Shown here piece after piece: positions 652 to 30,979 of a stretch of 64,000 nucleotides of DNA. Position numbers and translations under genes: made by a program. The stretch is from a virus (lineage: Duplodnaviria; Caudoviricetes): positions 3,069 through 67,068 of IMG/VR virus record IMGVR_UViG_3300025944_000010; one strand, written 5' to 3'. Position 1 is the first letter of the stretch; every line of letters starts with the position of its first letter. Below the pieces are notes generated by a model, which was not told where the DNA came from, did no database searches, and saw nothing but the letters and a program-made list of their open reading frames with translations.

Positions 652-1134
652 GTGGAACACATGAGAAAAGTAATTAGTTTACTGATGATTTGCGTAGCAC
701 TTGCGGTTTTTAATCCCATTCCAGTTCAAGCGCAGTTTCAGAATCCCTCTGCAATATCTGTTTATTCTCCAGCCACGGTCACAGTCACAGCGACATGTAC
801 AACTACGGGATGTCCTACATTTACTCTTCCCGCAGTCTGTACAGCGACAGTACGCCTAGCAGGGACAAATAGCGCGGTGTCTGTTATCGCCCAAGTTAGC
901 AATGATGGTGGAGCGAATTATAGTCCGATTGTTCCTACAGTTGTTGGTGGAACAGGACTAACTACTCCCAATGGAACAGTAACCGCTACTACAGGAGCGA
1001 TGGTTGCTGGATTCTATGCATTACAGCTTCCGACTTACAATCGCGTTCGTTTTATCGTCGGTACTCTCACTGGAACAAATTTAACAATTACGCTGAAGGC
1101 TAGCAGCGCATGTAATGGTGGAGCAATCCTGTAA
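652..1134 (+). CDS. Signal-peptide-bearing beta-rich protein (likely start 661)
   Basis: MRKVISLLMICVALAVFNPIPVQA|Q N-terminus; Thr/Gly-rich beta-strand body. Confidence 0.7.
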   Translation: MEHMRKVISLLMICVALAVFNPIPVQAQFQNPSAISVYSPATVTVTATCTTTGCPTFTLPAVCTATVRLAGTNSAVSVIAQVSNDGGANYSPIVPTVVGGTGLTTPNGTVTATTGAMVAGFYALQLPTYNRVRFIVGTLTGTNLTITLKASSACNGGAIL

Positions 1135-1155
1135 AAAGTCTTACGGTAAGACAAT

Positions 1156-1776
1156 GTGGACACTTTCTACACAATCGAGAAACTTGGCAACAAACAGAGG
1201 CTTACGCCTGAAGGGTTTCTGCTTTGCGAAGATGTCCCGATTGCGCGAACGGGTACGCAGCTTTATTTGGCGCGAGAAGTTCCTGAGATTGAAGCCGATA
1301 GTCAAGGCCATGTCACAATGGAGCGCGACGAAGAAGATGTATTCAGGCCAGAAACAATTGCAAGCGTCAACGGAAAGTGCATTACCGTTGACCATCCTAA
1401 TGATCTAGTAAGGCCGCATAGCTGGAGAGATTTAGCGGTAGGAGTGGCATTAAACGCAAGACGCGGAAGCAATGGAGATAAAGATTTATTACGCGCTGAT
1501 TTGTTGATTACGGATTTTGAAGCTATCGAGCAAGTAAGACAGCGTACCGAAGATGCAAAGCGCGGACTAGGGACGGGGCAGGAAATAAGTGCAGGGTACA
1601 ACTACAACGGGGTACAGATTGCAAAAGGCAGGGGCAAACAGACCGATATATGGATTAACCATATAGCCCTAGTTGACGCGGCGAGATGTGGAAGTAGATG
1701 CAGTATCGGTGACGCGGTAGTGGTAGAAAAAAAGAGAACGTCAAAAATTGTAAGAGTGTTTATACATAGGAGCTGA
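1156..1776 (+). CDS. DUF2213 head maturation protease-like protein
   Basis: RLTPEGFLLCEDVPIARTG, TVDHP and NHIALVD..RCG.RCSIGD motifs; first gene of head module. Confidence 0.88.
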   Translation: MDTFYTIEKLGNKQRLTPEGFLLCEDVPIARTGTQLYLAREVPEIEADSQGHVTMERDEEDVFRPETIASVNGKCITVDHPNDLVRPHSWRDLAVGVALNARRGSNGDKDLLRADLLITDFEAIEQVRQRTEDAKRGLGTGQEISAGYNYNGVQIAKGRGKQTDIWINHIALVDAARCGSRCSIGDAVVVEKKRTSKIVRVFIHRS

Positions 1777-1777
1777 A

Positions 1778-2608
1778 ATGAAACTCTGGGAAAAACTCAA
1801 AGCGGCCTACAACGGAAAAGACTGCAAGACTTTTGATGAGGCCATTGCCGAGTTGAAGGCTAAGGATGAGGACTCAGAGGGTGGGACTGCGGTACATGTC
1901 CACACAAACGAAGGCCGTTCGGCTTATGATGATGACACCTTAAAAGGTTTGTTTGAGAAAAACGAAACCGAGCATAAGGCGATGGATGAGCGCATGGCCG
2001 CGTGTGAAGGCATGATGAAAACGGCCAATGATGCCAAGGCCAAAGACGAAGAGGAAAAGAAAAAGAAAGAAGAAGAGCAGAAGGCCAAGGACGCGGAGAA
2101 AGAAAAAGAAGAAAAGGAAATTAAGGATGCATTGGCCGATGAAGCTCCGGCAGGGGAAGAAGAAAAAGCCAAGACAGCGAAGGACAGCAGTTATTTAGTC
2201 GAAAGTTTCCAGACTACAAAATCAAAGGCGGAAATCATTGCTCCGGGAATCCATCTGCCAGCGTTTGATAAGGCGGCAGACCCAAAGGTTACGTTTAATT
2301 CCATCTGTGGATTGAGGCGTAAAGCAATCCAGTCGGCAGCGCGTGATGCTGATTCACTGGCAATGATTCTGAAACTCAGCGGCGGCAAAGCATTCGATTC
2401 GGCCAAGATGGATGGAATGTCTTGCGGTCGGATTAAAGTTTTGTTCGATTCATTGGCAGAAATGAAACGCTTGGCCAACAATGCAGCGGCCAACAAGGAA
2501 AAGCCGGACATGGCTGCATTGTTGCAAACCGATGGTCAGCCGATGAGCAATGAGAAATTTAAATCGGTGCGAGAAGAAGCGCGTAAGAAGCGCGGTCAGC
2601 ACGTATAA
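1778..2608 (+). CDS. Capsid scaffold-like protein
   Basis: Charged coiled-coil rich in KD/EEK; lies between protease and decoration genes. Confidence 0.7.
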   Translation: MKLWEKLKAAYNGKDCKTFDEAIAELKAKDEDSEGGTAVHVHTNEGRSAYDDDTLKGLFEKNETEHKAMDERMAACEGMMKTANDAKAKDEEEKKKKEEEQKAKDAEKEKEEKEIKDALADEAPAGEEEKAKTAKDSSYLVESFQTTKSKAEIIAPGIHLPAFDKAADPKVTFNSICGLRRKAIQSAARDADSLAMILKLSGGKAFDSAKMDGMSCGRIKVLFDSLAEMKRLANNAAANKEKPDMAALLQTDGQPMSNEKFKSVREEARKKRGQHV

Positions 2609-2644
2609 AAGTTTTGAAATAGAAATTTTTCAGGAGGCAACACA

Positions 2645-3181
2645 ATGGGCGCAGCGTTTACATTCAGAGCGGGAGCGGGATTTCCCGGCAACGTAACTCG
2701 CCAAGAGAACAGCATTATTGAACCTGCTCTCATTGATGCCGCAGCACCGCCATTGCTTTATGGTGTGCCAGTGGTGATTGATCCGACTACGCAAGGCGTG
2801 AGACCGTTGGTAGCTGGCGATAGTGGATTGACGAATTTTTATGGAATTTTGGTTCGCGCATTCCCGACATCGCAAGCGTCAACTACAAATTTTGGAAATA
2901 CTCCACTCGGCACTAACCCAGCTCCTCCTACCAGCGGCCCCTGTGATGTATTAGTAAGTGGATATATCAATGTACAGGTTCCTATAGGATCGGCATTGGC
3001 CTTGAAGAACGGCGCGGTATTTGTGTGGGTAGCTGCGACATCAGGAGTTCATATTCAGGGTGGATTTGAAACGGCTGCAAATGGCGGTAACACTATTGCC
3101 ATCGGCGGTGCAGGCGTAACAACGCATTACAACGGTGGCCAAGACGCGAACGGGATCATCGAGTTAGTGTTTAACATTTAA
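2645..3181 (+). CDS. Capsid decoration/cement protein
   Basis: AFTFRAGAGFPGNVTR N-terminus; directly upstream of capsid gene as in Bcep781-like phages. Confidence 0.75.
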   Translation: MGAAFTFRAGAGFPGNVTRQENSIIEPALIDAAAPPLLYGVPVVIDPTTQGVRPLVAGDSGLTNFYGILVRAFPTSQASTTNFGNTPLGTNPAPPTSGPCDVLVSGYINVQVPIGSALALKNGAVFVWVAATSGVHIQGGFETAANGGNTIAIGGAGVTTHYNGGQDANGIIELVFNI

Positions 3182-3256
3182 GTTTCGGAACAAAGTTTAT
3201 TTCCGACAGGGAGTGGCCTGAAAACATGGCCACACCTAATTTTAGGAGGAAGCGCA

Positions 3257-4318
3257 ATGTTGACTTTCGATCAGAGGGCGTTCGATGCCACAGGTATCCC
3301 AATGGGCAAGAAACTTGGGGGAACCTACACTAAAGACGGAAAGTCTTACGATTCCACAGGCGCATTCCTCGAGAATGAACTATCGCGCATCGACCCCAAG
3401 ATGCACATGCCGCTTGCCGATATTCAGTATGATCGGGATATCGACATTCGCAGCGACGTAACGATGGCCGATGAATTTTCCAGTTTCACGGTATCGACAT
3501 TCGGCGGCACAGGTGGACTCGGTACGGGAAACTCAATCGGCAACGGTAAGCACTGGATTGGTCAGAACTCCACGGCCATCAGTGGGGTGTCGGTAGATAT
3601 CGGATTGATTACGCATCCACTGCGCAAGTGGGCCATTGAATCCGCGTATGACATATGGGACATCGAGCAGAGTGCGAAGCTTGGCCGTCCGATTGACCAG
3701 CAGAAATTCTATGCGCTTCAGAGAATGCACGAAATGGAAGCAGATGAGCAGGCTTACATTGGTGACATTCCAAACGGTGACGCTGGATTGCTTACGCAAC
3801 CTTCAACCGTGGTAGTGCCTCAGAACGTAGCGATAGGAGGGGCAGGAAGCACGTCATGGGCGCTGAAAACTCCGGCAGAAATTCTTGCCGATGTAAACAC
3901 GGCAGTAACGGCGGTATGGACTGCCAGCGCGTATGCGGTGATGCCGGAAAGAATTTTGCTGCCACCAGCGCAATACGGGGCAATCAGTACTGCTTTGATT
4001 TCTTCTGCTGGACAGGGATCAGTGTTGAAGTACCTGAAACAGAATTCAGTAGTGATGGCGAAGGAAGGAAAAGAGTTGGACATTCAGCCTGTGAAGTGGC
4101 TGGCAGGAGCGGGTGTAGGTGGAACAATCGGTACGCCGGGAATAGATCGCATGGTGGTCTATACCAAGCGTGAAGAGTACATTCGTTTCCCCTATGTACC
4201 GATGGCGCGTACCCCGGTAGAGTTCCGTGGCATCTATCACATCACTACTTACTACGGCAAAATGGGAGTGGTGGAGGTTGTATATCCACAAACCGTAGGA
4301 TATTTCGACGGAATCTAG
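3257..4318 (+). CDS. Major capsid protein (DUF2184 family)
   Basis: 353 aa; GAFLENEL.RID, KTPAEILADVN, DRMVVY, YYGKMGVVEVVYP; strong SD AGGAGG. Confidence 0.9.
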   Translation: MLTFDQRAFDATGIPMGKKLGGTYTKDGKSYDSTGAFLENELSRIDPKMHMPLADIQYDRDIDIRSDVTMADEFSSFTVSTFGGTGGLGTGNSIGNGKHWIGQNSTAISGVSVDIGLITHPLRKWAIESAYDIWDIEQSAKLGRPIDQQKFYALQRMHEMEADEQAYIGDIPNGDAGLLTQPSTVVVPQNVAIGGAGSTSWALKTPAEILADVNTAVTAVWTASAYAVMPERILLPPAQYGAISTALISSAGQGSVLKYLKQNSVVMAKEGKELDIQPVKWLAGAGVGGTIGTPGIDRMVVYTKREEYIRFPYVPMARTPVEFRGIYHITTYYGKMGVVEVVYPQTVGYFDGI

Positions 4319-4378
4319 TTAATAAAGTAATTAGCAGAAAGTCTTACCGTAAGACAATTTTTAGGGAGAGAAAAAGTT

Positions 4379-4825
4379 ATGGCTACCACGAACGTAACAG
4401 AGAAAAAAGACGAAGGAACCTCAACCTATTTCTTTCCCAGAGTTGTCCACTTGCGCCTAGCAGATGGAAGCCTGTTGAAGTTTGCGCCGGGGCCGCGAGA
4501 GGTTCCAAACAATCTGCATCCGGCAGAGATGGAAATTCTCAAGCGCAACGGGGTAAAGCCGATTGGCCAGACCTCTAAACAGGTCATTGCGGCGACGGAA
4601 GCGGCCATTGCTGCCCCTGCTACCGACTTAGACACTGCCAAGGTCAAAGCTATTCAGGAGAAGGCTCTGGCGCAGTCCGGTGAAAAATCTACGGAGTTAT
4701 CATCTGACGAAAAAGCCAAGGCCGCAAAGGAAAAGGCAGCGATAGATAAAGCTAGGTCGGATGCTGATGTCAAGGTAGCAACGGACAAAGTCAGGACAGA
4801 TGCGGACACAAAGAAAACAACCTAA
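4379..4825 (+). CDS. Hypothetical virion-module protein
   Basis: SD GGGAGAG; between capsid and DUF4054; K/A-rich tail. Confidence 0.7.
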   Translation: MATTNVTEKKDEGTSTYFFPRVVHLRLADGSLLKFAPGPREVPNNLHPAEMEILKRNGVKPIGQTSKQVIAATEAAIAAPATDLDTAKVKAIQEKALAQSGEKSTELSSDEKAKAAKEKAAIDKARSDADVKVATDKVRTDADTKKTT

Positions 4826-4853
4826 TATTTTTTAACGGGGGAGGGTCTAGGCA

Positions 4854-5315
4854 ATGTCATCTGTACCTCTTCCTGTCCCGAGTACGTTTCGCGCTGATTT
4901 CCCAGAATTCGCAAACACTACAACCTATCCCGATAGCCTGATTAACTTCTGGCTTGGGATAGGCGTTTTGCGTTTAACGGCAAAATGGGGAACGCTGCTG
5001 AATCAGGGATTGGAATTATTCACAGCGCATTTTATTTCGATCAGCGCAATGAATCAGTTATCGGTAGCGGCTGGTGGAATACCGGGAATGCAGCGCGGAG
5101 TTATTAGCTCGGAGCAAGCGGAGATATCGGTTAGCTACGATACGGCGGCTGCAATAGTAAAAGATGCGGGGCATTGGAACCTAACTGTATATGGAACGTA
5201 TTTTCTGGAACTAGCTAATTTGGTTGGCATGGGGCCAATACAAGTTAGTCCTAGTTGGTGGCAAAACAATGGGGTACAGGTTAATGCTTTAGGATGGCCG
5301 TGGTTCCCGTTCTAG
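4854..5315 (+). CDS. Head-tail adaptor (DUF4054)
   Basis: FRADFPEFA...YPD, LFTAH, SVSYD, WNLTVYG..F motifs. Confidence 0.88.
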   Translation: MSSVPLPVPSTFRADFPEFANTTTYPDSLINFWLGIGVLRLTAKWGTLLNQGLELFTAHFISISAMNQLSVAAGGIPGMQRGVISSEQAEISVSYDTAAAIVKDAGHWNLTVYGTYFLELANLVGMGPIQVSPSWWQNNGVQVNALGWPWFPF

Positions 5316-5332
5316 GTTAGAATGATAACCCA

Positions 5333-5824
5333 ATGCCTACAAACGTAAACATCAATGTAAACATTACAGTAGATAATCTAGCGCAATTTGAAGCGGCGAT
5401 TAATCTACTTCAGAAAAAGCAAGTGCTAGCAGGAGTACCAGAAGCCAAGGCACGCAGAAGTGGGCCAATCAATAACGCGACACTAGCGCGAATCCACGAC
5501 AAAGGGAGTCCATCGCAAAACATTCCCGCTAGGCCATTTATGGAGCCGGGAATTAAATCAGTACAGAGCAGGATGGAGCAGAAGTTGTTAGGTGTAGGCC
5601 AAGCGGTGCTTGAAGGTGATACGGTTAAAGCGGAGCAAGGGTTAGAAAGCGTGGGATTGATAGCGCAGAACGGATTACGCGCAATGGTTAATTCCAACAT
5701 TCAACCTGCATTGAAACCAGCAACATTGGCAGCGCGTAGGCGTAGGGGAAGGACAGGAACAAGAACATTGGTATCTTCGGGAGAAATGCGCAATAGTCTT
5801 ACCTATGTAGTAAAAGACAAATGA
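5333..5824 (+). CDS. Neck / tail completion protein
   Basis: VLAGVPE, IHDKGSP..NIPARPFM, T.ARR.RRGRTGTRTLV.SG motifs. Confidence 0.8.
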   Translation: MPTNVNINVNITVDNLAQFEAAINLLQKKQVLAGVPEAKARRSGPINNATLARIHDKGSPSQNIPARPFMEPGIKSVQSRMEQKLLGVGQAVLEGDTVKAEQGLESVGLIAQNGLRAMVNSNIQPALKPATLAARRRRGRTGTRTLVSSGEMRNSLTYVVKDK

Positions 5825-5825
5825 A

Positions 5826-6467
5826 ATGTGTCCACTACTCAATCCCGGCGCAGTAGTTTTAAGCAGCCCAATGCTGCTTGATACCTTCAGTGTAATGCGC
5901 AGGATTGAAACGGTAAACAGTTCCGGAGAATCGGTGCTTTCGGTTTCCGCTACAACTGGAATCTATGGAGTAGTTAAGCCCATAGGTGACAGACTAGATC
6001 GTAGAGCGGATGAAGATTCCAGCAAGAAAGATTTGCGAGTGTTTACCAAGTTTGCGCTGAGAGGATCGACAAGGGATGGAGTACCCACAGATTACAAACC
6101 TGACCTTGTGTACTGGCATGGGAACAACTTCCTTGTAGTTGATGTTAGGGATTGGGGAGCATACGGAGTAGGATACGTAGTAGCAGAATGTAACTTATTT
6201 GAGCTGGTATCGGCTCCTCCTCAAGTAAATTCAGGGTTAGGAAATTCTGGAACCCTGCTGCCGTTCGGGGGACTCGTGACGGCCTATCAACCTACAATCA
6301 TTTCCAGCAATCAGGCGACAATACCTATTACGATTCTGGCACAGAACGGGATTCTGTTTAAGAATGGAATCCAACTGCAAGCGCCTAGCCAGTTCACGAT
6401 ATCAGGGCAGACTATAACTTTTGTGGATCTATTAGTACCGGGGGACGCGCTCACATTCTACGCATGA
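5826..6467 (+). CDS. Head-closure protein with C-terminal extension
   Basis: N-terminal ~130 aa resembles a head-closure protein (PDLVYWHGNNFLV..V.DWGAYG.GY); ~80 aa extra C-terminal domain. Confidence 0.7.
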   Translation: MCPLLNPGAVVLSSPMLLDTFSVMRRIETVNSSGESVLSVSATTGIYGVVKPIGDRLDRRADEDSSKKDLRVFTKFALRGSTRDGVPTDYKPDLVYWHGNNFLVVDVRDWGAYGVGYVVAECNLFELVSAPPQVNSGLGNSGTLLPFGGLVTAYQPTIISSNQATIPITILAQNGILFKNGIQLQAPSQFTISGQTITFVDLLVPGDALTFYA

Positions 6468-9400
6468 AAAAATTCCTAAAAAGTCTCACGGTCATACTTT
6501 TTTATGCTCTGGCAATAGGGCAAAACCTTCCCAATATTTCCACCCAAACCAAAGGGCAACTGCCAATCAATAGGTTGAATGCGCCGGGGGTAGCAGGGTT
6601 ATGCTTACAGACAGATGGATTGGGAAATGTTGCGGTACAAAGTTGCTCGGGAACAATATCGGGAACAGTAACAAATTTCAGCGCAAACAATCTGTCTCCG
6701 TTATTTGTGACTTCTGTATTTAATCCGACTACTACGCCAGCCTTAAGTTTCTCGCTATCAAGCTTTGCGCCACACACATTTTTTGGTAATAATACTTCGG
6801 TAACGGCGATTCCGGGCGCACAATCCATAGGAATCGCTGACCTTCCGGGGTCAGGGGCCGTCACCATTAATACCTCATTTCCTATTGGTGGGGGTGGCTC
6901 TTTGGCTCTTGGGGGAAGTTTGAGTTTGACGTGCGCAAGTTGCGTTACTAATATCCCGCAATTGCCGATAACAAAAACTGCTGTAGCTTCAAGTTGGATC
7001 AATTCCTACGATTCAACTACAGGATTATTTACTGCTACACGTCCAGCATATACAGACTTGACAGGATTACCGCAGCTTGCGGTGACAAAAGCGGCAGCTT
7101 CATCTAATTGGCTGCGTAGCTATGATTCAACCACTGGATTATTTGTAGCTAGTCAACCTGCTTACTCTGATATTTCTGGGACTCCGCAGCTTGCGATTAC
7201 CAAAACATCCATATCGTCAAACTGGATTAATTCTTACAACTCTGCAACTGGATTATTTACGGCAACGCAACCTGCAACCGCAGACTTGAGCGACTTTCCA
7301 TCTCAAGCTACAAACTCAGGTAAATTCCTGACTACTAATGGAACGGTATTGAGTTGGGGGTCGCCATCGGGTGCAGGTACGGTAACCAGTTTTAGTAGTG
7401 GAAATTTATCGCCACTATTTACAACTTCAGTAGCAACCGCGAACACAACGCCAGCACAGACTTTTGCGTTATCTACAGCGGCTGCGCATCTGTTCTTTGG
7501 AAACAATACGGCAATTACCGCTGCTCCTGCTTATGAAGCAATTGGGAATAGTGACCTTCCCGGCTCTGGTGGGGTAACTTTAAATACGACTTCACCAATC
7601 ACGGGAGGCGGATTAGTAACTCTGGGGAATGCTCTTACGTTAGCGTGTCCATCGTGCTTGACTTCGGTAACTGCTCATAATCTTCTAAGCGCAACGCATG
7701 GCGATACCACAACACATGCAGTCTTACGGGGAGACTTAATTGCAGGAATCGGCGTAGCACCGACTTGGACAGCAGTAGCCAAAGGTGGAACGAATACCTA
7801 TCCAAAATGGAATGCAAGCGGGGATGTAGTAGCGTCAACTTTGGCAGCGTCGGGGGTAGGTTCGCCAACTACTTGCACGAATCAGGCTGTGACTGCGTTC
7901 ACTCTAAATGCCGATGCTGCGCCTACGTCAACCTGTACGACTATCACGAATGCATTTACGACAGGAACATTTCCAGCTACAGCACATAATTTATTGAGTT
8001 CTACTCATGGTGATACGACACCGGGAAGCGTAGTAACTGGCGATGTAATCAGCGGCCAATCGAGCGCATGGGCAAGGCTGGCGGGAAATAGTACGACAAC
8101 GCCGCAATATCTGAAGTCACTTGGAAGCGGAGCGGCGGCAACTGCCCCAAGTTGGGCGCAAGTGGCCTACACCGATCTATCGGGGGTACCTAGTACATTC
8201 GCGCCAACTGCACATAACATCCTGTCAACTGCTCATGGTGATACCACGGCAGCAGCAGCGGTAAGGGGTGATGGATTTTTTGCCATAGGTGTAACCCCTA
8301 CTTGGCAGAGGTTAGCGCATCCGGCAACTACAGGCGGATATTTTAAATGGAATGGTACGGACATAGTAGCTTCATCTCTGGCGGCAAGTGGAACGGGAAA
8401 TTGTGGAGCCAATAATTTTGAAACGGGGAGCAATGCTGACGCTGCCCCTACATGTGCGCAACCTGCGTTTACTAATCTTTCAGGTTCGGTAGCTGCTGCA
8501 CAGATGCCAGCATTGACCGGGGACATTACAAGTACGGCAGGAACGGTATCTACTACTCTGGCAACTGTAGCTACACCGGGAACCAATACGAAAGTTACAT
8601 TCAATGCCAAGGGTCTAGTTACTTCAGGGGCATCGGCTGTATTGGCATCGGCAGACTTCGTAAATCAGGGTACGACTACAACGCTGCTGCATGGAAATGC
8701 GGCTGGCAATCCATCGTTTGCTGGAGTCAATTTAATAAACGACGCTTCGGCCAATCAGGGAACAGTAAATCAGTTGTTACATGGGAATGCAGCGGGTCAG
8801 CCATCATTCAGCGCAGTGGCCAGCGCGGATTTAAATTTAACCACGACTGCATGTACAAACCAATTTGTATCTGCAATTTCTTCAGGTGGAGTGGGAACAT
8901 GTACTACGGATACTCTGGCATCGGCGCAACATGCGAATCAAGGTACGGTAAATACCGTGTTGCATGGGAACGCTGCGGGAAATCCCGCATTTAGTGCGGT
9001 AACGTCTGCTGACACTACAGGGACGTTTCCAGCCACGGCACACAACTTACTATCGGCAACGCATGGCGACAGCACCACGGGCACTGTAGCGCGAGGGGAC
9101 ATCATTACAGGGCAAGGCGCAAGTCCCACATGGACGCGACTAGCGAAGGGAGCAGCTAATCAATTACTCTCTATGGATGCTACGGGAACCGATATTATAT
9201 GGGCAGCGCCTTCGGGTGGAACGGGTACGGTAACATCTTTTAGTTCTGGTAATCTATCGCCAATTTTCACAACTTCTGTAGCCACGGCAACGACAACTCC
9301 TGCTCAAACATTTTCACTATCCACGGCAGGAGCGCATACATTTTTAGGGAATAACACTGGAGCTACAGCAGCACCCGCCTATGTACAACCTGCATTCACG

Positions 9401-11341
9401 GATATTTCTGGCGTAGGGTCTTGTGCTCAAGAGCCTGCACTAACAGGAGATGTAACATCCAGTGGGTGTGCGGCCACGATAGCCAGTAATGCTGTAACGC
9501 AATCCAAGGTTACAGGTGGCTATGTCGATCTAACGAACGCCCAGAATCCGATTGCAGGAAATAAAACATTTTCCGGCAATGTGTCGGCACTATCATTCCA
9601 ATTCACACGCCGGATGGTGGATCAGGAGGCAGGTGCGGACTTCGGCGCAAAGCTGAATAACTGCATTGTCAATATCACGAATGGACTCAACGGAGCTTTT
9701 GGTGGCATTTGCGATGCGTCAAACCTGCAAGGATTTCAAGCAGCAGCGGCGACGATCACCGTTAACCACGATCTTGTAACAATATTGCTGCCTTGCAACG
9801 TAGTTTTGACGCTTGCCGGTTCCCCCGGTCTAAGTTGGACAAATACCAATGGTGCCATGCTTGGATGCTCTCAACAAAACACCATTATTACAACCTCATC
9901 CGCAACCGCAGACGTGATTTCCCTAAGCTCGCTAGCGACCAAAAATCATTTCTCAGATTTTACGGTTCAATCGGCAGTAACTAGAACTGCCGGTAGCGGT
10001 ATCAGAGTGTCAGGTGGGGATAATGATTTTGAGCGTATTGCTGTATTGCCAACATGGAATGGGGTAAGTCTCGATACTGCCACTAGCTCGGGAGGCAACA
10101 TCTTTCGTTCCGTGCGATTTGGCGGCGGCGGATCTGGTGGTGCGTGGAACTGCCAGACCAAGACCGGAGGCGTGGCAACTGGAAACGTAGCTTCAAACTC
10201 ATTTGTCCAAGGCGTTTGGGATAGCAATGGCGGAGCATCTGTAGCAGACGCTCTAATATGCATTCAAGACGGTACAGACTCGTTAGACATCATCGGAGGT
10301 CAAGCCGTAGCGAACTTGGGCGGGGGAACAGACGCTATTCCAGTTCACTTCGAATTGGTTAATGCTGGCAATGCCCCATCCAACATTCGCATTACTGGCC
10401 TCACAATGGAAGGAGGCGTAACTAAGCCTGCTATGAAGATAGATTCCGTCTTTGGAATGGAATGCACCGCTTGCACTTTTCAGTCCAGCTTGCAAGGTTT
10501 ACTGGCTAACTCTGGAACGCGTATTAAAATCAACGGTGGCCTGTTCTTCAATAACCAGCAAGAGGGTGTTCGTGACAACAATACAGCGGTTACCGATCTC
10601 CAAATACTCGGAGCAAGGTTCTGCAATAATGGACTAGGCACTACTAATACCTTTAGCGATTTCTTTGCGGTAGCTGCGGCCACCGGATTTTTTGTACAAA
10701 ATAACCGATTCCTTGCTTGTCAAGCGGGTGGCAATGCACCAAAAAACAACGTCGAGATCGCGTCAGGAGCAAGTACAAACTATCAAGTAACAAACAATGG
10801 GTTTGCCAATGCTACAGGAGCACCTATCTTAGATGGTGGTACAGGAACAGACAAGGTAATCTGCGGAAACACTCCAGATGCTACTGGCGTAAATTCATTC
10901 TGTAATGTACGCAAAATATATCTCACGGGTAACTATACAAATGCAACCACATCCCTGACTAACGTATCATCTGGTAATACTCTGGCTTTTGCGGTAGGAG
11001 CAAACAAAGATTATGCGCTAACCTGCGAGTTGTTCTATCAGGCTGCATCTACTGGTGGATTGCAAATAGGATTTACTGGCCCTGCTTCGCCTACAGCTAT
11101 AAACTATTCTGTGATGATGGCCACAAATGTAACAGCATCAAATTATGGATCAACTACAGCATTTGGTAATAAGATTCCGGCCACTGGAGTAGCAGTAGGG
11201 GCGGCGACAACAAACTTTCCTGCTCATATTGCTCTCATGTTACGTAATGGAGCTAACGCTGGAACAGTTACACTGCAAGCGGCAAGCGTTGCGTCAGCAA
11301 CTTTGACTATTAACAACACATCGTTTTGCACGATACAGTAA
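6464..11341 (+). CDS. 1625-aa repeat-rich fibre/spike-like protein with signal peptide and beta-helix-like C-terminal region
   Basis: MKKFLKSLTVILFYALAIG|Q; several internal repeat families; C-terminal third has right-handed beta-helix-like Gly/Asn/Ile periodicity. Confidence 0.75.
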   Translation: MKKFLKSLTVILFYALAIGQNLPNISTQTKGQLPINRLNAPGVAGLCLQTDGLGNVAVQSCSGTISGTVTNFSANNLSPLFVTSVFNPTTTPALSFSLSSFAPHTFFGNNTSVTAIPGAQSIGIADLPGSGAVTINTSFPIGGGGSLALGGSLSLTCASCVTNIPQLPITKTAVASSWINSYDSTTGLFTATRPAYTDLTGLPQLAVTKAAASSNWLRSYDSTTGLFVASQPAYSDISGTPQLAITKTSISSNWINSYNSATGLFTATQPATADLSDFPSQATNSGKFLTTNGTVLSWGSPSGAGTVTSFSSGNLSPLFTTSVATANTTPAQTFALSTAAAHLFFGNNTAITAAPAYEAIGNSDLPGSGGVTLNTTSPITGGGLVTLGNALTLACPSCLTSVTAHNLLSATHGDTTTHAVLRGDLIAGIGVAPTWTAVAKGGTNTYPKWNASGDVVASTLAASGVGSPTTCTNQAVTAFTLNADAAPTSTCTTITNAFTTGTFPATAHNLLSSTHGDTTPGSVVTGDVISGQSSAWARLAGNSTTTPQYLKSLGSGAAATAPSWAQVAYTDLSGVPSTFAPTAHNILSTAHGDTTAAAAVRGDGFFAIGVTPTWQRLAHPATTGGYFKWNGTDIVASSLAASGTGNCGANNFETGSNADAAPTCAQPAFTNLSGSVAAAQMPALTGDITSTAGTVSTTLATVATPGTNTKVTFNAKGLVTSGASAVLASADFVNQGTTTTLLHGNAAGNPSFAGVNLINDASANQGTVNQLLHGNAAGQPSFSAVASADLNLTTTACTNQFVSAISSGGVGTCTTDTLASAQHANQGTVNTVLHGNAAGNPAFSAVTSADTTGTFPATAHNLLSATHGDSTTGTVARGDIITGQGASPTWTRLAKGAANQLLSMDATGTDIIWAAPSGGTGTVTSFSSGNLSPIFTTSVATATTTPAQTFSLSTAGAHTFLGNNTGATAAPAYVQPAFTDISGVGSCAQEPALTGDVTSSGCAATIASNAVTQSKVTGGYVDLTNAQNPIAGNKTFSGNVSALSFQFTRRMVDQEAGADFGAKLNNCIVNITNGLNGAFGGICDASNLQGFQAAAATITVNHDLVTILLPCNVVLTLAGSPGLSWTNTNGAMLGCSQQNTIITTSSATADVISLSSLATKNHFSDFTVQSAVTRTAGSGIRVSGGDNDFERIAVLPTWNGVSLDTATSSGGNIFRSVRFGGGGSGGAWNCQTKTGGVATGNVASNSFVQGVWDSNGGASVADALICIQDGTDSLDIIGGQAVANLGGGTDAIPVHFELVNAGNAPSNIRITGLTMEGGVTKPAMKIDSVFGMECTACTFQSSLQGLLANSGTRIKINGGLFFNNQQEGVRDNNTAVTDLQILGARFCNNGLGTTNTFSDFFAVAAATGFFVQNNRFLACQAGGNAPKNNVEIASGASTNYQVTNNGFANATGAPILDGGTGTDKVICGNTPDATGVNSFCNVRKIYLTGNYTNATTSLTNVSSGNTLAFAVGANKDYALTCELFYQAASTGGLQIGFTGPASPTAINYSVMMATNVTASNYGSTTAFGNKIPATGVAVGAATTNFPAHIALMLRNGANAGTVTLQAASVASATLTINNTSFCTIQ

Positions 11342-11362
11342 TAGTCTCGCGGTAAGACTTTT

Positions 11363-12034
11363 ATGAGCACATCAGCCACAGGCGGTTATTTAATACCATC
11401 GGCAACGAACGCAAAAGAAGACGAAACTCTACGTGTGTTCTTTCAGCAGATGGTATCGGGGATAACCGGGATAGACGGAACGATGGTGCGTCCGAGATGG
11501 CAAGCGGAACCGCCAAACATGCCGCAATTTGGGAGCGATTGGGCAGCGATAGGTGTAACGAAAAGAGTGCGAGATACCAATGCCTACGTGACGCACAAGG
11601 ATACGATAGACGAAAACGGAAACAACATAATATCGGATTACGTCTATAGAAACGAAGTCATGGACGTGCTTTGTTCTTTCTATGGGCCTAACTGTGAAGC
11701 TAAATCAGAATTACTTGCCATGGGTTTAGAAGTAGATCAGAACCGAGAAATCATGCAACTATCCGGATTCGGGTTAGTATGTGTGGAAGATGCGGTAATG
11801 ATGGCGGATTTTTTTAACAACCGAGAAGTAACAAGAATCGATCTTCCATTTCAGATGCGCCGAGCACAGTTGTATCAATACTCAGTGCTCGATCTAGTAG
11901 CAGCGGAAGTAACTATTATTGAGGATATTGAAGGAGTGAGTGATACAATCACGGTGACGAAGCAGCCCTCATTCGGATTTAACGTGACGAATGGAAATGT
12001 GCAGGGATTCGGTGCAGGTAATTGGGTGCTATGA
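11363..12034 (+). CDS. Tail terminator / neck protein
   Basis: VSGITGIDG.MVRPRWQ.EPP motif; upstream of sheath. Confidence 0.8.
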   Translation: MSTSATGGYLIPSATNAKEDETLRVFFQQMVSGITGIDGTMVRPRWQAEPPNMPQFGSDWAAIGVTKRVRDTNAYVTHKDTIDENGNNIISDYVYRNEVMDVLCSFYGPNCEAKSELLAMGLEVDQNREIMQLSGFGLVCVEDAVMMADFFNNREVTRIDLPFQMRRAQLYQYSVLDLVAAEVTIIEDIEGVSDTITVTKQPSFGFNVTNGNVQGFGAGNWVL

Positions 12035-12366
12035 ACAAGGCGAAGTTAAATAAATTCGCGTACATACTACTTCGAGAGCGTCTTACGTTTGGCGATATGG
12101 AAGCAATACTAAACGAAGTAGAATCACCCGATGAGCCTGACATGGTGCCAGCGGTAGCAGGGTACATTGAAGAGATCGTAAGTCGCATTACTGCATCTGG
12201 CCTGAAATGCGCAGAGAATATGTGCAATACTGAGTTTGAAGATGTGAGAATGGTAAGGAACACTGTTGTTTTGGGTAGTGCTGGAATAAACCAAAGATTG
12301 GAATTTGTAGAAGTTCCGATGTGCGCCGATTGCCGTAGAAGAAATCCTGAGGCAGTCTTACTGTAA
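12022..12366 (+). CDS. Hypothetical insert with CxxC motifs
   Basis: Interrupts terminator-sheath synteny; its stop TAA lies inside the palindrome at 12355. Confidence 0.6.
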   Translation: MGAMNKAKLNKFAYILLRERLTFGDMEAILNEVESPDEPDMVPAVAGYIEEIVSRITASGLKCAENMCNTEFEDVRMVRNTVVLGSAGINQRLEFVEVPMCADCRRRNPEAVLL

Positions 12367-12384
12367 GACTAGGAGACAAGAAAA

Positions 12385-13872: not shown

Positions 13873-13883
13873 GGGAGAAAAAC

Positions 13884-14351
13884 ATGGCACAACAGGTTTT
13901 CACATACTCTTTCAAGGATGTACATGCGACCCTTGCGGGGCCGGGAGGGACAATCTCTCTAGGCAATGGTGCCAATGTAGCGGAAGAAGGAATTAGCTGT
14001 GAGCAGATTGAAGATAAAACCTCATGGCAGGTAGGGGCAGATGGCTCTGTGGCCTACAGCCTACATGCTGCGGAGATTTTCAGGGTAACGGTACGACTAT
14101 TGAAAACCAGTCCTACTAATCAGCAGTTATCCCAAATGTACACCTTCCAGAAAGGCAGTTCGCTGAATTGGGGGCAGAATACTCTGGTAGTCAGTAACAC
14201 GATTACGGGAGATCAATACAACGGAGCGCAGGTTGCATTTGTAAAATTTCCTTCCAATAACTTTGCGAAAGAAGCGCGTAACGTGGAATGGGAATTCGTT
14301 GTCGGTTTCATGGACAAGATTCTAGGCGGGGCAGGGCTACTGATAGTCTAA
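13884..14351 (+). CDS. Tail tube protein (DUF3277)
   Basis: TYSFKDV.ATL.GPGG, EEGI, GADGS...SLHA, VRLLKTSP.N motifs. Confidence 0.9.
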   Translation: MAQQVFTYSFKDVHATLAGPGGTISLGNGANVAEEGISCEQIEDKTSWQVGADGSVAYSLHAAEIFRVTVRLLKTSPTNQQLSQMYTFQKGSSLNWGQNTLVVSNTITGDQYNGAQVAFVKFPSNNFAKEARNVEWEFVVGFMDKILGGAGLLIV

Positions 14352-14383
14352 AAAGTCTTACGGTAAGACTCAGGGGGTTAAAG

Positions 14384-14533
14384 TTGAACATACTTTTAAT
14401 CATTGCTGCTCTTGTGTGTTTCCTGATTGGAGCATTCGGGGAGCCTTACCTTCCGCGTGTTCGCGTAGGATGGCTTGGGCTAGCGTTCTATATGATCTAT
14501 TTGCTCATGGCATTACTTTCAGGGCACCGTTAG
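14384..14533 (+). CDS. Small two-TM membrane protein
   Basis: TTG start after GGGGG; two hydrophobic segments. Confidence 0.55.
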   Translation: MNILLIIAALVCFLIGAFGEPYLPRVRVGWLGLAFYMIYLLMALLSGHR

Positions 14534-14553
14534 AGCGTTACCATGATCCCGCG

Positions 14554-16448: not shown

Positions 16449-16488
16449 AGTCTTACCGTAAGACTAAATATTTTGTATACTCTTACCC

Positions 16489-16920: not shown

Positions 16921-17108
16921 ATGTTGCTCTGGTAAGAATGGCCAGCGAAGAAGATTGGTTATTGTCTCTGGTTAAAGAGGGGATGATACGATACAGTGAC
17001 TTGAAGGATGGAACGGTATCGCTTGAGGATTGTGCAAGGATGAGCGATTACTTGAACGTAAGGCAAGAGAATCAGGCGCGTATCAATAAGTCTCTGGAGA
17101 ATAAGTAG
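16870..17108 (+). CDS. Tail assembly chaperone -1 frame extension (GT; DUF6889-like)
   Basis: Slippery T TTT TTT at 16872-16878; -1 frame open to 17108 (EDWLLSLVKEGM..YSDLKDGT.SLED.A.M.D.L.V..EN). Confidence 0.7.
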
Positions 17109-18770: not shown

Positions 18771-18952
18771 TAGATTTAAAAACGTATCACAGTGAAGCTA
18801 TTACACTGATAGAAAGCAGAAAGCGGATAGTTGAATCAGCGGAACTGATTGTTTGGGAATGCAGGGAACGTGAAAAGTTTCAAACCAAAGAATGTTTAGT
18901 AATGGCTATCAACTGCATGGCTTATGCAAAGGTGATTTTAGGATATGTCTAG
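18767..18952 (+). CDS. Hypothetical protein
   Basis: Overlap-coupled ORF between tape measure and next gene. Confidence 0.5.
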   Translation: MIDLKTYHSEAITLIESRKRIVESAELIVWECREREKFQTKECLVMAINCMAYAKVILGYV

Positions 18953-19478
18953 TCCTGTAATAACTCCGGTATCGATCAAACTCCCGCGTTCAATTGGAAC
19001 CATTACCTTTGATGCGGTAGTCGAGGAGAGGCACGAAGATAGATGGGTGATGACAGATCAGCCCGTAGAAGTGGGCAGCACGGTTACAGATCATATTTAC
19101 AAACTTCCGGCATCGCTAGATATTACGGCGGTTACTTCCATGGGAAGCCCACAGAACAAAACTCAGGATGTGTCATTTCTAAAAACGCTGTACAGTAGTT
19201 TGCTTGCGTTAGGTGGGGTATTGCTTCCAGTACAGACCGGAAAAAGAATTTACAAAAACATGGCAATAGAAACCTTGCGCGTGAATACCGATAAGCAGAA
19301 TGAAAATTGGTTAAGCGTAACGATTTCATTGCAGGAAATATTACTGGCTACTACTACGCTGGTAACGGTTACACCGATGGAGAATCAGGCATTGCCCGAG
19401 CGCACGGCGGCAACGGTAAATCAAGGGCCAGTAAACGTACAACCTGCGCCAAATTTCAACTTACCGCCTACTCCGTAA
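18945..19478 (+). CDS. Baseplate / tail-tube initiator (Dit-like) protein
   Basis: RSIG.I.FDAVVEE.H.D...TD.PVE.GS..TDH motif. Confidence 0.8.
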   Translation: MSSPVITPVSIKLPRSIGTITFDAVVEERHEDRWVMTDQPVEVGSTVTDHIYKLPASLDITAVTSMGSPQNKTQDVSFLKTLYSSLLALGGVLLPVQTGKRIYKNMAIETLRVNTDKQNENWLSVTISLQEILLATTTLVTVTPMENQALPERTAATVNQGPVNVQPAPNFNLPPTP

Positions 19479-19547
19479 AAAGTCTTGCAGTAAGACTCCA
19501 GTCTGTATTAAAATGATAACCATGACGCAACCAGCGAAGGAAAGAGG

Positions 19548-19790
19548 GTGAAGCCAATGATGAAAAAGACAGACCACTCATTGTTCTCAAAGATTACGAT
19601 AGCCTTGTTAGGTGTGCTGACGGTAACTACGTTGTCGTGCAACAGAAAAACAGCCATATCCTTACAGGGTCAGAAATCACCAACACCTGTATTAAATACA
19701 ACGGTATCTACAAAAACTACAAAATCGGAATCCTTCAGTCCGAGTGAGCTAGGTCTTAATTACGCCGCGTTCACTGACACCGATAGGTGA
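19548..19790 (+). CDS. Small putative lipoprotein (moron)
   Basis: Hydrophobic N-terminus with TLS|C lipobox-like site; flanked by palindromes 19482 and 19832. Confidence 0.5.
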   Translation: MKPMMKKTDHSLFSKITIALLGVLTVTTLSCNRKTAISLQGQKSPTPVLNTTVSTKTTKSESFSPSELGLNYAAFTDTDR

Positions 19791-19888
19791 ACAGGGCGAA
19801 GGTATCGGTAATTTTTTTAAATACACAAAAAGTCTCTCTGTAAGACAAAGTATTGCTACAATCTAAAGCGTGTTTATTACTCCCGTAG

Positions 19889-22057
19889 TTGCAGAGATAC
19901 GTTTTAGCGATGATAACTAAAAAAGTTTCCGACTTTACTACACACAACGTCTCTAGTCCTGCCAACTACACTCAAGCCAACAATCCTCTGATGTTTTCCG
20001 GCAACACCAATCATGATGGTGTAGTGTCTGCGGTCGATCCTACTCTCATGGATGACAGTGAGAACGCAGCTAGTCCTATGGTCGTCTCAAAGGAGAGTAT
20101 CAGGACACTGATGCCCGTAGGCTGGGCGGGAAGAATGGCAATTCATGCACAGTTATGGTGGGGATTAACGAGTCATCCCAATATCGGGATGAATATGAGA
20201 GACCTGCCAACCATGACCGGGATATGCGCTGACTTAGTAGCGCGTGGTTTTGATTTTTTAATTGCAGACTGGTATCACTACACAATAACGACAGTATTAA
20301 ACGATGCAAGCCTAAACATCCTAGCGTCAGCGTGTCTTGCTACAGGGTTGAATTTTGCAATTATGATTGACGAGCAATTTTTTGGTAAGCAAGGCAGTAC
20401 ACCTGCTACTGAGCAAGCTGACATTATAAGTGCTATAAATCACTTGCTAGATAACTATGCAAGTCATCCTAGGTATGAGCACTATGTATACAATGGCGTT
20501 TCCAGACCTATAATTGCTCTTTGGGATGTCGCAAGTGTAGCGGGAAGCAATGTAAATTGGTCTACTGTAAAATCTTCCATTGCATCTCATGGCAATCCAC
20601 TGGTGATTCAATATCAGGCAAGCGGTTTTTCGGTTGCGGGGAGCGATGGAGCCTTAGCGTGGGTCGATACTAACGCGGATACTACTTTAGTACCATCAGG
20701 CACAAACTATCTCACGAATTCATTCTTGCCTGCTGCTGCTGCCAATCCCACGAAGATAAATATTAGCTCCTTCATTAAGGGCTTCAACGGAACAGACACT
20801 AAAAGTACAAGCTGGTCTTTGGGAAAATACCTAGCCCAAAGGCAAGGACAGACGTTCTTAGACTGGATAGCGGTTAACGCCGCATGGTCGCTCACTCACA
20901 GACTTGACATACTGGCTGGATTGACTCTTGATGATTACCAAGAGGGCACTGCATTACAATGCGGAATCCGAACAGACGTTACATGTACTGCCTCTGCGGT
21001 AGGAAATCTTATAAGTTTCAGCATAACCGGGAACGAGAATACAGTTCGCAAGTACAACCTATGGGGTACAGTCAATGGAGTGGATGTAGGTTTATATGCC
21101 AGCGTATTTCCCGGAGCTACAAAGCAATTTGATCTTGCCTCATTAGGTCTAGACCTAGGGGTTTCATATACGTTTTACATCGAAGTTCAGTCGATGCCAA
21201 TGCTACAAAACCACATGGCACCGCAGACCTTCACGTACTTTGTAGCATTACCATCTCCTCCTGATATAAGTTTTATTCTTAGTGCGGATGTCGGCATGGA
21301 TGGGATTGTTGGTGCAGCATCCCCGTTGCTAACGGTTTCTCTGGTAGAAAGCAATATACAACCCCAAATTAGCATACCCGCAGTCATAGAGATTCCGCTT
21401 CAACCTACTCCGCAGCTTCTAGGTGTTACTCTAAATTCCATAGACTACAAATTGCGCGTAGTCTGGAACGATCAAAACCAATCATGGGTAATGGACATCA
21501 TGGATGCAAACAATAATGCAATAGCCATGGGATTGCCGCTGGTTACGTCCAATGATTTACTTGAGCAACTGGAATATTTAGGGATAGGTGGGCAGATGTT
21601 AGTACAGACGGATTTCTATACTACCGATGTGCCAACATTTGAAAATTTGGGAAGCACAGGGCATCTATATTTTGCTTCAGCCGGAATACCAATAGTGTCA
21701 AGTAGTGGATTTCCGCAGGTAAGCCAAGGGTCTACTTCGCCATCATCTTCTGGCCTTCCATTTAGCACTATTCCATTTTCGGCCACACCTGTATTTGCGG
21801 GTTTGCCTAATACGGACATGGTTTTCCAGATTACGCTTACAGGAAATGTGACATCTTCCACAATTACAGGATTGACGGCTGGAGCGCACGTTACGTTTAT
21901 TATCATTCAGGATGATGCAGGAAGCAGAACATTTGCGTGGCCATCAAACGTACAGAATGCTCAGACCGTAGGAACGTCCCCCAACGAAAGAGATGTGCAG
22001 GAATTTGTGTGGGATGGCTCGAACGCATGGCCAATTTCTATGATGACGAATAACTAA
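19889..22057 (+). CDS. Fusion: glycoside hydrolase-like domain + baseplate plug-like domain + adaptor module
   Basis: GH-like paralog to ~21240; EIPL.P..Q...VTL....Y.L...WND....W.MDI.D...GLPLV...DLLEQ..YLG.GG baseplate domain 21383-21673; FSATPVF..ITLTGNVTSSTIT module from 21770. Confidence 0.72.
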   Translation: MQRYVLAMITKKVSDFTTHNVSSPANYTQANNPLMFSGNTNHDGVVSAVDPTLMDDSENAASPMVVSKESIRTLMPVGWAGRMAIHAQLWWGLTSHPNIGMNMRDLPTMTGICADLVARGFDFLIADWYHYTITTVLNDASLNILASACLATGLNFAIMIDEQFFGKQGSTPATEQADIISAINHLLDNYASHPRYEHYVYNGVSRPIIALWDVASVAGSNVNWSTVKSSIASHGNPLVIQYQASGFSVAGSDGALAWVDTNADTTLVPSGTNYLTNSFLPAAAANPTKINISSFIKGFNGTDTKSTSWSLGKYLAQRQGQTFLDWIAVNAAWSLTHRLDILAGLTLDDYQEGTALQCGIRTDVTCTASAVGNLISFSITGNENTVRKYNLWGTVNGVDVGLYASVFPGATKQFDLASLGLDLGVSYTFYIEVQSMPMLQNHMAPQTFTYFVALPSPPDISFILSADVGMDGIVGAASPLLTVSLVESNIQPQISIPAVIEIPLQPTPQLLGVTLNSIDYKLRVVWNDQNQSWVMDIMDANNNAIAMGLPLVTSNDLLEQLEYLGIGGQMLVQTDFYTTDVPTFENLGSTGHLYFASAGIPIVSSSGFPQVSQGSTSPSSSGLPFSTIPFSATPVFAGLPNTDMVFQITLTGNVTSSTITGLTAGAHVTFIIIQDDAGSRTFAWPSNVQNAQTVGTSPNERDVQEFVWDGSNAWPISMMTNN

Positions 22058-28305: not shown

Positions 28306-28337
28306 AAACCTAAAGGGCTTGAAAGGGAGATAACTAT

Positions 28338-29885: not shown

Positions 29886-29918
29886 TCTCACGGTAAGACT
29901 ATTTGGAGATAACCAGTA

Positions 29919-30506
29919 ATGGCTAATACGAATGATTTTATTTGGTTCGGTACGGGATCAGGGGCAAACGTAGATACACAAGCAGTTTACGCTGCTGCCC
30001 TAGCCGCGCTAGGTTATCCATCGGTAGGCTTCAACACAGGAACGGCATTTGCCAATCAGTTGAACAAAGTCTGGCGACAGGGTACGGCAGCATCGAAGGT
30101 TCTAGGTGACCTAGCCAATCAATATGGATTCGATTGGCTGGACAATGGCAATGCGGCAACGCTTCTGGCCAATCTGATTTCAGCAATCAAGGCTGTATCT
30201 GGACAGTTGTCGCAGGTAGTAGCATTCTCCGCGACTCCGGTATTCGATTGTTCCAAGGGGCAAAAGTTTGAAATTACTCTTACCGGAAACGTAACCAGTT
30301 CCACGATTACAAACGTATTGCCGGGAATGAGTCTGGTATTCACGATTAAGCAGGATGGAACTGGCAGCAGGACGTTTTCACCACCTGCCGGAGTCCCGCT
30401 GGATACGATTGATCCAACGGCGAACTCTGCCAGTGTCCAGACATTTGAAGTTAGTTCGACAAGTGTAATCAGGTACTCAAGCCCGATGATGAGCAATCCG
30501 GCATAA
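29919..30506 (+). CDS. Short tail-fibre base (anchor domain + adaptor module only)
   Basis: NDF..FG.G.GANV.TQ..Y, GF..G.A...QLNKVWRQ anchor, followed by the ITLTGNVTSSTIT module from 30219. Confidence 0.75.
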   Translation: MANTNDFIWFGTGSGANVDTQAVYAAALAALGYPSVGFNTGTAFANQLNKVWRQGTAASKVLGDLANQYGFDWLDNGNAATLLANLISAIKAVSGQLSQVVAFSATPVFDCSKGQKFEITLTGNVTSSTITNVLPGMSLVFTIKQDGTGSRTFSPPAGVPLDTIDPTANSASVQTFEVSSTSVIRYSSPMMSNPA

Positions 30507-30514
30507 GGATAAAA

Positions 30515-30979
30515 ATGAAAACGGCATTCAAGGTATTATTTTTTCTTTTCGTTACTGTAATGGCGATGTATGGATTCGCCAAGTTTACAGGTGCGAACAT
30601 CGTCAATTCGACAATCAATAGCACAGCCATTGGGGGAACGACTCCAAGCACTGCCATTTTTACAACCGTTGCGGCCAATACAAGTACACAGATGAATGGA
30701 AGCGTCTTGGCATCGGGGACGGCATTTAAACATATAAGGACTACATCATGCACTACGGCGGCATCTCTCAATAATGTGTGCTCTACAACAGTAACTTGGC
30801 AAACACCAGCATTTCCAGATGCCAACTATACAGTTGTTTGCGTGAGCGAAAATTCTGCTGCTTTTGTTGCTGGAGTAGGCTCACATACTGCTACAAACTT
30901 TAATGTCAATATACAAAACGCCCCACCGTCAACTGTGGCTACTTCTGTAACGCTGGACTGTATTGGCGTACACGATTAA
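30515..30979 (+). CDS. Signal-peptide-bearing small fibre-tip / H-lectin-like protein
   Basis: MKTAFKVLFFLFVTVMAMYGFA; TVTWQTPAFPDANYTVVC...CIGVHD. Confidence 0.65.
   Translation: MKTAFKVLFFLFVTVMAMYGFAKFTGANIVNSTINSTAIGGTTPSTAIFTTVAANTSTQMNGSVLASGTAFKHIRTTSCTTAASLNNVCSTTVTWQTPAFPDANYTVVCVSENSAAFVAGVGSHTATNFNVNIQNAPPSTVATSVTLDCIGVHD

Follow-up and report, generated by a model that had tools for sequence, protein, structure and literature searches.

In phages of the K1-5/SP6, G7C and CBA120 kind, the receptor-binding subunits are exchangeable and attach through short conserved N-termini to an adaptor on the virion, and all of the parts are cytoplasmic. A comparable arrangement may exist in the stretch of DNA analyzed here (64,000 nucleotides, the window), which covers bases 3069-67068 of the single 67,068-bp virus record IMGVR_UViG_3300025944_000010, except that the exchangeable subunits mostly carry export signals. 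The phage is a contractile-tailed phage (myovirus) from soil, with a genome of about 67 kb. Four genes of its virion module, to be referred to as slots A to D (proteins P0001 to P0004, Table 1), begin with Sec-type signal peptides as read from their N-termini, and judging from the sequences the four proteins are very probably exported by Sec. As to their destination, we lean slightly, and tentatively, toward docking on the particle at lysis over a free role in the envelope.

The mosaic adhesive trimer (MAT) fibers of Bdellovibrio bacteriovorus (PMC10769870) are similar in architecture, with a signal peptide, a conserved N-terminal region, a phage-tail-fiber-like shaft, and swapped tips. A further likeness is the S74 chaperone domain of some P0002 homologs, although Pfam finds none in P0002 itself. 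The MAT genes, however, belong to a predatory bacterium, and the fibers are located on its surface or invasion vesicle, whereas the genes described here lie inside a phage late virion operon. Exported tailspike-type β-helices acting on the cell's own polysaccharide are known from Pantoea (WceF, PMC7949094) and Vibrio (RbmB). In comparison, WceF uses the twin-arginine (Tat) rather than the Sec pathway and is chromosomal, and neither protein is found in a virion module or together with fiber shafts. The Q-rule proteins of Porphyromonas gingivalis phages (PMC10367356) are also phage-encoded, with a signal peptidase I site that exposes a Gln, but their function is unassigned, no fiber or tailspike bodies are named among them, and the host phylum is different. 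The literature searched holds no description of Sec signals on tailed-phage receptor-binding proteins, and a paper on cultured Tunturiibacter phages contains no proteomics or signal analysis.

Each of the four signal peptides has a basic n-region, an uncharged hydrophobic core, and small residues at the -3 and -1 positions, and Gln is present at +1 in three of them. The n-region is MRK in P0001, MKKFLK in P0002, and MKK in P0003, and the cores have 14, 12 and 15 residues, respectively. These three agree with the requirements of Sec and signal peptidase I (charged n-region, core of about 7-15 residues, small residues at -3 and -1). P0004 is borderline, with the n-region MKTAFK and a core of about 15-16 residues or more. 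Neither a twin arginine nor a Cys at +1 (lipobox) is found in the four N-termini. A simple signal heuristic flagged 7 of the 92 open reading frames (ORFs), compared to 1.6 expected in shuffled proteins; the seven are made up of P0001 to P0004, two ORFs resembling lipoproteins, and one that is likely a false positive.

The start codons of the slot genes are coupled to upstream structural genes. Shine-Dalgarno-like sites precede the P0001 and P0004 starts, the P0002 start overlaps the upstream stop codon (ATGA), and the P0003 start directly follows a TAA. The four ORFs have no in-frame upstream starts, save for a GTG at 652 ahead of P0001, which is an unlikely alternative. The hydrophobic segments remain coding sequence in the homologs, and the starts assumed in the original prediction are sound. 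If the segments were instead cytoplasmic assembly helices or the result of wrong starts, the proteins would be ordinary cytoplasmic virion appendages, and their position in the virion module and receptor-binding-type bodies would need no unusual route. We consider this hardly probable. There are no alternative starts, and in the homologs the segments drift yet still show the n-h-c order, small -3 and -1 residues, and the Gln at +1 that is typical of the host, with conservation starting exactly at +1. Moreover, paired Cys residues follow the signal.

A survey of homologs indicates that the signal is conserved as a feature, not as a sequence, in the P0001, P0002 and P0003 families. All 20 of the 20 P0001 homologs have it, and the P-x-Q-A/Q site (the slash marks the cut) and four Cys residues are invariant. 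The nearest relatives of P0002 all carry a signal of drifting sequence, and conservation starts at the residue after the cut (QNLPNISTQTKGQLP). Among 114 mosaic P0002 homologs, about half score signal-positive. For P0003, the close full-length homologs have a signal in 3 of 3 cases, followed by a variable N-region. Twenty remote homologs of the P0003 core include 15 that are positive by the heuristic and about 19 on inspection, four of the five heuristic-negative ones having truncated or mis-started signals. The small and giant signal-bearing genes are located at the same positions in the complete sibling phages G402 (66.6 kb) and G403 (64.9 kb).

Eleven fiber homologs (P0012, P0023, P0024, P0028, P0030, P0036, P0039, P0051, P0056, P0062, and P0066) start with a soluble N-domain of about 90-150 residues. 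A hydrophobic segment comes next, internal to the protein, and a cleavage-type site and Gln are found at its end in most of the eleven. Loci L045 and L046 are the source of two of the eleven. P0012 shares 61% identity with residues 844-1625 of P0002, and was at first interpreted as a conventional signal-less fiber of another phage type with the distal half of P0002 in common; this reading was withdrawn on account of the internal signal-like segment after its soluble N-domain. The architecture may represent a cytoplasmic handle with an exported fiber, and nearly all relatives of P0002 appear to be built to cross the inner membrane. Only the group starting with MAIPYYPG is without a hydrophobic segment, and it shares with P0002 only the shaft repeats, which are common to phage fibers.

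The bodies of the four proteins had also been described as Cys-rich, which agrees with a Cys content of 1.9%, compared to 0.78% in the rest of the module (p = 1e-5). Cys richness alone is weakened as proof of periplasmic folding, and it was replaced by a test for covariation of signal and Cys. Across the homologs, Cys density is 1.4-1.7% in signal-bearing proteins and 0.6-1.0% in those without a signal (a 1.6-2.2-fold difference), and 60 of the 66 signal-bearing relatives of P0003 have an even number of Cys residues. Disulfide formation outside the cytoplasm fits these observations, since both Cys density and even counts follow the signal. Export is well supported because the signals are conserved despite sequence drift and the paired Cys residues track them.

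The Gln at +1 had been taken to indicate a Bacteroidota host, which is not borne out by the Shine-Dalgarno use, the prophage relative in Terriglobia, or the Gln at +1 in Terriglobia themselves. Shine-Dalgarno sites, of which little use would be expected with a Bacteroidota host, are located ahead of the capsid, sheath and tube genes. The sole match to the P0002 family in species genomes is a contig of a Terriglobia metagenome-assembled genome, in which Gln is at +1 in 5 of the 5 full-length signal-bearing TonB-dependent receptors. In addition, a related prophage is integrated in a 6.8-Mb Terriglobia genome, and its terminase, portal, capsid, sheath and baseplate proteins share 47-52% identity with their counterparts in the window. 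With moderate confidence, the host appears likelier to belong to Terriglobia (Acidobacteriota) than to Bacteroidota. Acidobacteria lie outside the groups examined in the Q-rule paper, and Gln at +1 is an unsafe marker of a Bacteroidota host.

The model of P0003 (predicted local distance difference test score 81.7) has a right-handed β-helix and a C-terminal β-sandwich. A comparison of the model with the Protein Data Bank (PDB), using Foldseek, finds phage tailspike depolymerases as the best matches (E 1e-8 to 1e-6), followed by AlgE4 and the RbmB lyase, and the ESM Atlas also gives a Pect-lyase/GH28-like group. The right-handed parallel β-helix fold is the same as that of Fri1 gp49, Det7 gp208, HK620, LKA1 gp49, and Sf6. 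These known tailspikes have no signal peptide and possess their own N-terminal particle-binding domain, whereas P0003 is the opposite on both counts. Of the features of P22/HK620-type tailspikes, the β-helix is present in P0003 and the particle-binding domain is absent; the mature protein starts in the model with about 20 low-confidence residues, and the β-helix comes next. The C-terminal domain (about 95 residues) is widespread, ending proteins that differ greatly in length, and also forms the body of P0004.

The matches of P0003 to secreted bacterial enzymes would also be expected if the exported proteins stay off the particle and act as free glycan-binding or glycan-cutting proteins of the periplasm or envelope. 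Possible roles would be the trimming of capsule, exopolysaccharide or O-antigen from within, the destruction or masking of receptors (which would keep progeny from being lost on debris, or block superinfection), or an aid to lysis and release. We take this alternative almost as seriously as docking. Pantoea WceF is an exported tailspike-like enzyme of this kind, acting on exopolysaccharide (PMC7949094), and the Q-rule signal proteins of the P. gingivalis phages have been interpreted as envelope modifiers (PMC10367356). On the other hand, a long-shaft fiber of 1625 residues such as P0002 is hard to explain as a periplasmic enzyme. Mature N-termini are also conserved while distal parts are swapped, a pattern that suggests attached receptor-binding proteins and argues against a free role.

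The model of P0001 is a β-sandwich, with YomS of SPbeta and XepA of PBSX as the nearest folds, although the match is weak (E 4e-4, template modeling score 0.48-0.64). XepA is described as an exported prophage protein ('PBSX exported protein'). XepA and YomS belong to the lysis regions of Gram-positive prophages, whereas the P0001 gene is among head genes, flanked by those of the minor head protein and the prohead protease. No match to P0002 or P0003 turned up in sequence searches of the PDB and of deposited phages, and neither a viral scan with P0003 alone nor the first scan of genome contigs with the P0003 family found any. Pfam and PHROG have no firm match for any of the four, the only hit being a weak one of P0004 to a PHROG tail fiber (E = 0.0018). 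The original prediction described the bodies as receptor-binding proteins. This holds for the β-helix of P0003 and the fiber repeats of P0002 but not for the H-lectin-like tips, which have no Pfam match. An H-type lectin and a type IX secretion system C-terminal domain were both rejected, there being no Pfam matches.

A domain of about 100 residues, to be referred to as the adaptor domain, ends both the short tail fiber g29919 and the plug protein g19889 (46% identity), and each of these genes is directly upstream of a signal-bearing gene. The fiber of the Terriglobia prophage has only the N-terminal anchor of about 95 residues in common with g29919; the anchor is followed by a classical tip in the prophage, and by the adaptor domain instead in g29919. 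In three sibling genomes, each copy of the adaptor domain has a fiber-like gene directly downstream. The G403 plug is without the adaptor domain, and G403 is also without a slot-C gene. In G402, slot C is occupied by a different signal-bearing protein of 389 residues with a similar mature start. Slot D encodes a signal-bearing homolog of P0004 with four Cys residues in G403, and in G402 a signal-less, Cys-free protein with no hydrophobic segment. The G402 protein has the motif S-T-I-x-S-x-x-I-G-G-T-x-P-S-T, as in P0004, and a cut of P0004 at YGFA/K would produce an N-terminus matching that of this sibling.

The adaptor domain is present in 73 viral loci. Downstream genes were counted in de-duplicated cases in which the domain is at the protein end and a gene follows closely, and 16 of them are signal-bearing and 7 signal-less. 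The S-T-I-x-S motif is found in both groups. The number of Cys residues is even in all 16 signal-bearing proteins, and their median Cys content is 2.2%, compared to 0.7% in the 7 signal-less ones (p = 2e-4). The pairing and the mixed signal status are as expected if the downstream proteins are distal fiber subunits that can be made in either compartment. Some of the signal-less partners look like fiber assembly chaperones. Pfam has no match for ten partner or signal-bearing proteins from related loci.

The signal of P0004 is less canonical than the others and could be an uncleaved signal anchor. P0004 at least would then be a type II inner-membrane protein with a periplasmic tip, acting together with the lipoprotein g31112 in spanin-like lysis or in superinfection exclusion. 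The long core, the lack of Gln at +1, and the Thr at -1 of the site in a sibling are consistent with an anchor, as are the adjoining lipoprotein, membrane protein and lysozyme genes and the similar long anchors of several proteins downstream of the adaptor domain. The body of P0004, however, is not a coiled-coil; by sequence it belongs to the tailspike C-terminal domain family, which is a β-sandwich in the P0003 model, and the G402 sibling has no hydrophobic segment at all. The lipoprotein, with 292 residues, is also far larger than known o-spanins such as lambda Rz1. We regard an anchored P0004 as improbable. A two-component spanin formed by P0004 and the lipoprotein has the expected adjacency to lysis genes, and was rejected on the family of the P0004 body, the size of the lipoprotein, and the G402 sibling without a membrane segment.

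The comparisons support that the four proteins are made late, together with the virion proteins of this probable Terriglobia myovirus, and exported by the host Sec system. Signal peptidase I would cut them, leaving Gln at +1 in three, and they would fold in the periplasm, where the paired Cys residues would form disulfides. We propose further that the P0004 tip protein and the P0003 β-helix, and perhaps P0002, would supply what the particle lacks at its distal end, namely receptor-binding or depolymerase subunits. After the cut, their conserved N-termini would be free to dock on the signal-less adaptor domain at the end of the short tail fiber and the plug protein; this would take place once holin lesions let the cytoplasm and periplasm mix, shortly before rupture of the outer membrane. 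Docking gains indirect support in that g29919 keeps its anchor but has the adaptor domain in place of a tip, that adaptor and fiber genes occur in pairs, that G402 has a signal-less sibling of slot D, that conserved mature N-termini go with swapped distal parts, and that the slot genes have their starts coupled to structural genes upstream. The first three of these observations also weigh against a free role, as they fit a structural partnership and a virion fiber without its own tip. The whole chain, from export through docking at lysis, is put forward as a tentative reading, somewhat more doubtful than secure.

Several points weigh against docking, and many of them favor the free envelope-acting role. 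Tailed-phage particles assemble in the cytoplasm, from which exported proteins would be separated up to the moment of lysis. What is called the adaptor here could in fact be a receptor-binding tip of small size. Relatives can do without the slots: slot C is absent from G403, and none of the four slots is occupied in the related Terriglobia prophage, so that the slots are insertions into a common backbone. The prophage has instead an 836-residue signal-bearing protein adjoining its lysozyme. P0004 and the lipoprotein g31112 abut lysis genes as well, being directly upstream of a 202-residue membrane protein and a lysozyme, and the nearest fold to P0001 is that of XepA, which is exported and encoded in the lysis cassette of a prophage. 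Moreover, P0003-like genes travel as cassettes with g31112-like lipoprotein genes into unrelated contexts; the two are adjacent in two other phage-like contigs and, within a bacterial contig of 457 kb, in an integrase-flanked element. Morons of the Lom/Bor/Llp/Cor kind are small outer-membrane protein or lipoprotein genes with their own expression signals, and are dispensable for the particle. Slot C is dispensable in G403, yet the slot genes are translationally coupled to structural genes and their bodies are large and fiber-like.

In the interpretation of the original prediction, export and oxidative folding are upheld by the conservation of the signal and its link to Cys, while attachment to virions is only plausible, with a free envelope role fitting about equally. 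The more general proposal is that of a two-compartment virion assembly, in this myovirus and in many soil phages of phyla with Gln at +1, whereby Sec-exported, trimmed and disulfide-folded fibers would join particles at lysis; this is slightly more doubtful again than either destination. If exported fibers do join the particle, they would be a widespread exception to the textbook, all-cytoplasmic assembly of tailed phages. Host Sec, signal peptidase and Dsb would then be phage dependencies, and disulfide-stabilized fibers might explain persistence in acidic soils. If the proteins stay free, the phages of abundant soil bacteria would hold a large unrecognized arsenal of exported, tailspike-like, envelope-acting enzymes. 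With either reading, automatic 'tail fiber' annotation overlooks a conserved export feature.

Table 1. Slot genes and neighboring features of the window. Positions are those of the window; a slash marks the signal cleavage site; Cys counts are for mature proteins; aa, amino acids; nt, nucleotides.
Feature	Position	Strand	Description
Slot A, P0001/P0278, 157 aa	661..1134	+	Signal PVQA/Q; β-sandwich body; 4 invariant Cys
Head protein phrog_939, g5826	5826..6467	+	C-terminal extension of ~85 aa; stop overlaps giant fiber start (ATGA)
Slot B, P0002, 1625 aa, fiber-like	6464..11341	+	Signal AIG/Q; conserved mature N-terminus; shaft repeats; His-containing repeats; C-terminal β-helix-like region; 28 Cys
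Lipoprotein-like ORF, 80 aa	19548..19790	+	Upstream of plug gene; weak call
Signal-less baseplate (plug) protein g19889, 722 aa	19889..22057	+	g14703-paralogous N-domain; Pam3 gp18-type plug, residues 500-596; C-terminal adaptor domain, residues 621-706 (nt 21749-22006)
Slot C, P0003, 553 aa	22058..23719	+	Signal AIG/Q; right-handed parallel β-helix (tailspike type); C-terminal β-sandwich of ~95 aa; 10 Cys
Short tail fiber g29919, 195 aa	29919..30506	+	N-terminal baseplate anchor (phrog_11303); adaptor domain, residues 94-176; no receptor-binding tip of its own
Slot D, P0004, 154 aa	30515..30979	+	Signal peptide or anchor YGFA/K; conserved fiber-start motif; tip domain of P0003 C-terminus family; 4 Cys
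Lipoprotein P0277, g31112, 292 aa	31112..31990	+	Pro/Thr-rich linker; homologs have P0003-like gene neighbors in three further contexts, mobile or phage
Lysis gene, membrane protein, 202 aa	32165..32773	+	Directly 3' of lipoprotein g31112
Lysis gene, lysozyme	32984..33394	+	Follows the membrane protein gene

Signal-bearing fibers are also found in other settings. The IMG/VR contigs L009 and L011 are siphovirus-like and contain signal-bearing fibers with the same mature N-terminal motif, Q-x-x-D-x-x-x-TKGNLP, encoded between the head genes and the tape measure gene; the fiber module is therefore not bound to one tail type. A large phage (L015, IMG/VR, 147,916 bp) has at positions 4669-18637 a run of signal-bearing proteins of 441-1107 residues with signal-less proteins of 453-516 residues in between; each signal-bearing one has Gln at +1. 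The composition of this phage looks low in GC and rich in Lys, so that its host phylum may differ. The integrase-flanked element of the 457-kb metagenome contig (L001, positions 1081-20616) encodes proteins of 503 and 2369 residues besides the P0003 homolog and the g31112-like gene, and no recognizable virion genes were found in the 22 kb covered.

Nearly all genes of the window are on the + strand. Family scans identified a prohead protease/scaffold, the major capsid protein, head proteins, the tail sheath and the tube, as well as a tape measure with a lytic transglycosylase domain, a baseplate hub, a DUF2612 protein, and the short tail fiber. The label of g26418 as a probable baseplate wedge (J-type) comes from position and homology, and the presumed terminase and portal at the far end of the window are likewise named from position and homology to G204 prophage genes. 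ParB, ThyX, DnaB helicase, RusA, PAPS-reductase-like proteins and an HNH protein are the non-structural families found by the scans, and no integrase was found in the window. The two PAPS-reductase-domain proteins (48510-49721 and 58741-59463, + strand), one of which also has DUF3440, are near the presumed packaging genes. The beginning of the record (100 bases) is repeated at 65,958 and its end (50 bases) at about 770; the resulting overlap of about 0.8-1.1 kb is not fully identical, and could be terminal redundancy or the result of assembly.

The extension of the head protein g5826 is present in sibling phages with the giant gene and absent in the Terriglobia prophage without it. A frameshift fusion of g5826 and P0002 was considered and rejected, as the two genes simply overlap by an ATGA and the stop is not preceded by a slippery site. 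The 202-residue membrane protein and the lysozyme are kept in G403; in naive longest-ORF calling, both lysis genes are hidden by a spurious minus-strand ORF of 215 residues (32534-33181). A lipoprotein of 163 residues with a classical LVGC lipobox (50681-51172, + strand) and a 136-residue protein with an N-terminal membrane segment (51632-52042, + strand) are both distant from the lysozyme, and may be a spanin-like pair. The protein g14703 (14703-16022, + strand, 439 residues), whose gene is flanked by those of the tube and the tail chaperone, shares 36% identity with the first 443 residues of the plug protein (19889-21220). In the sibling phages the plug is present without this N-domain, for which there is a weak Pfam hint to GH99.

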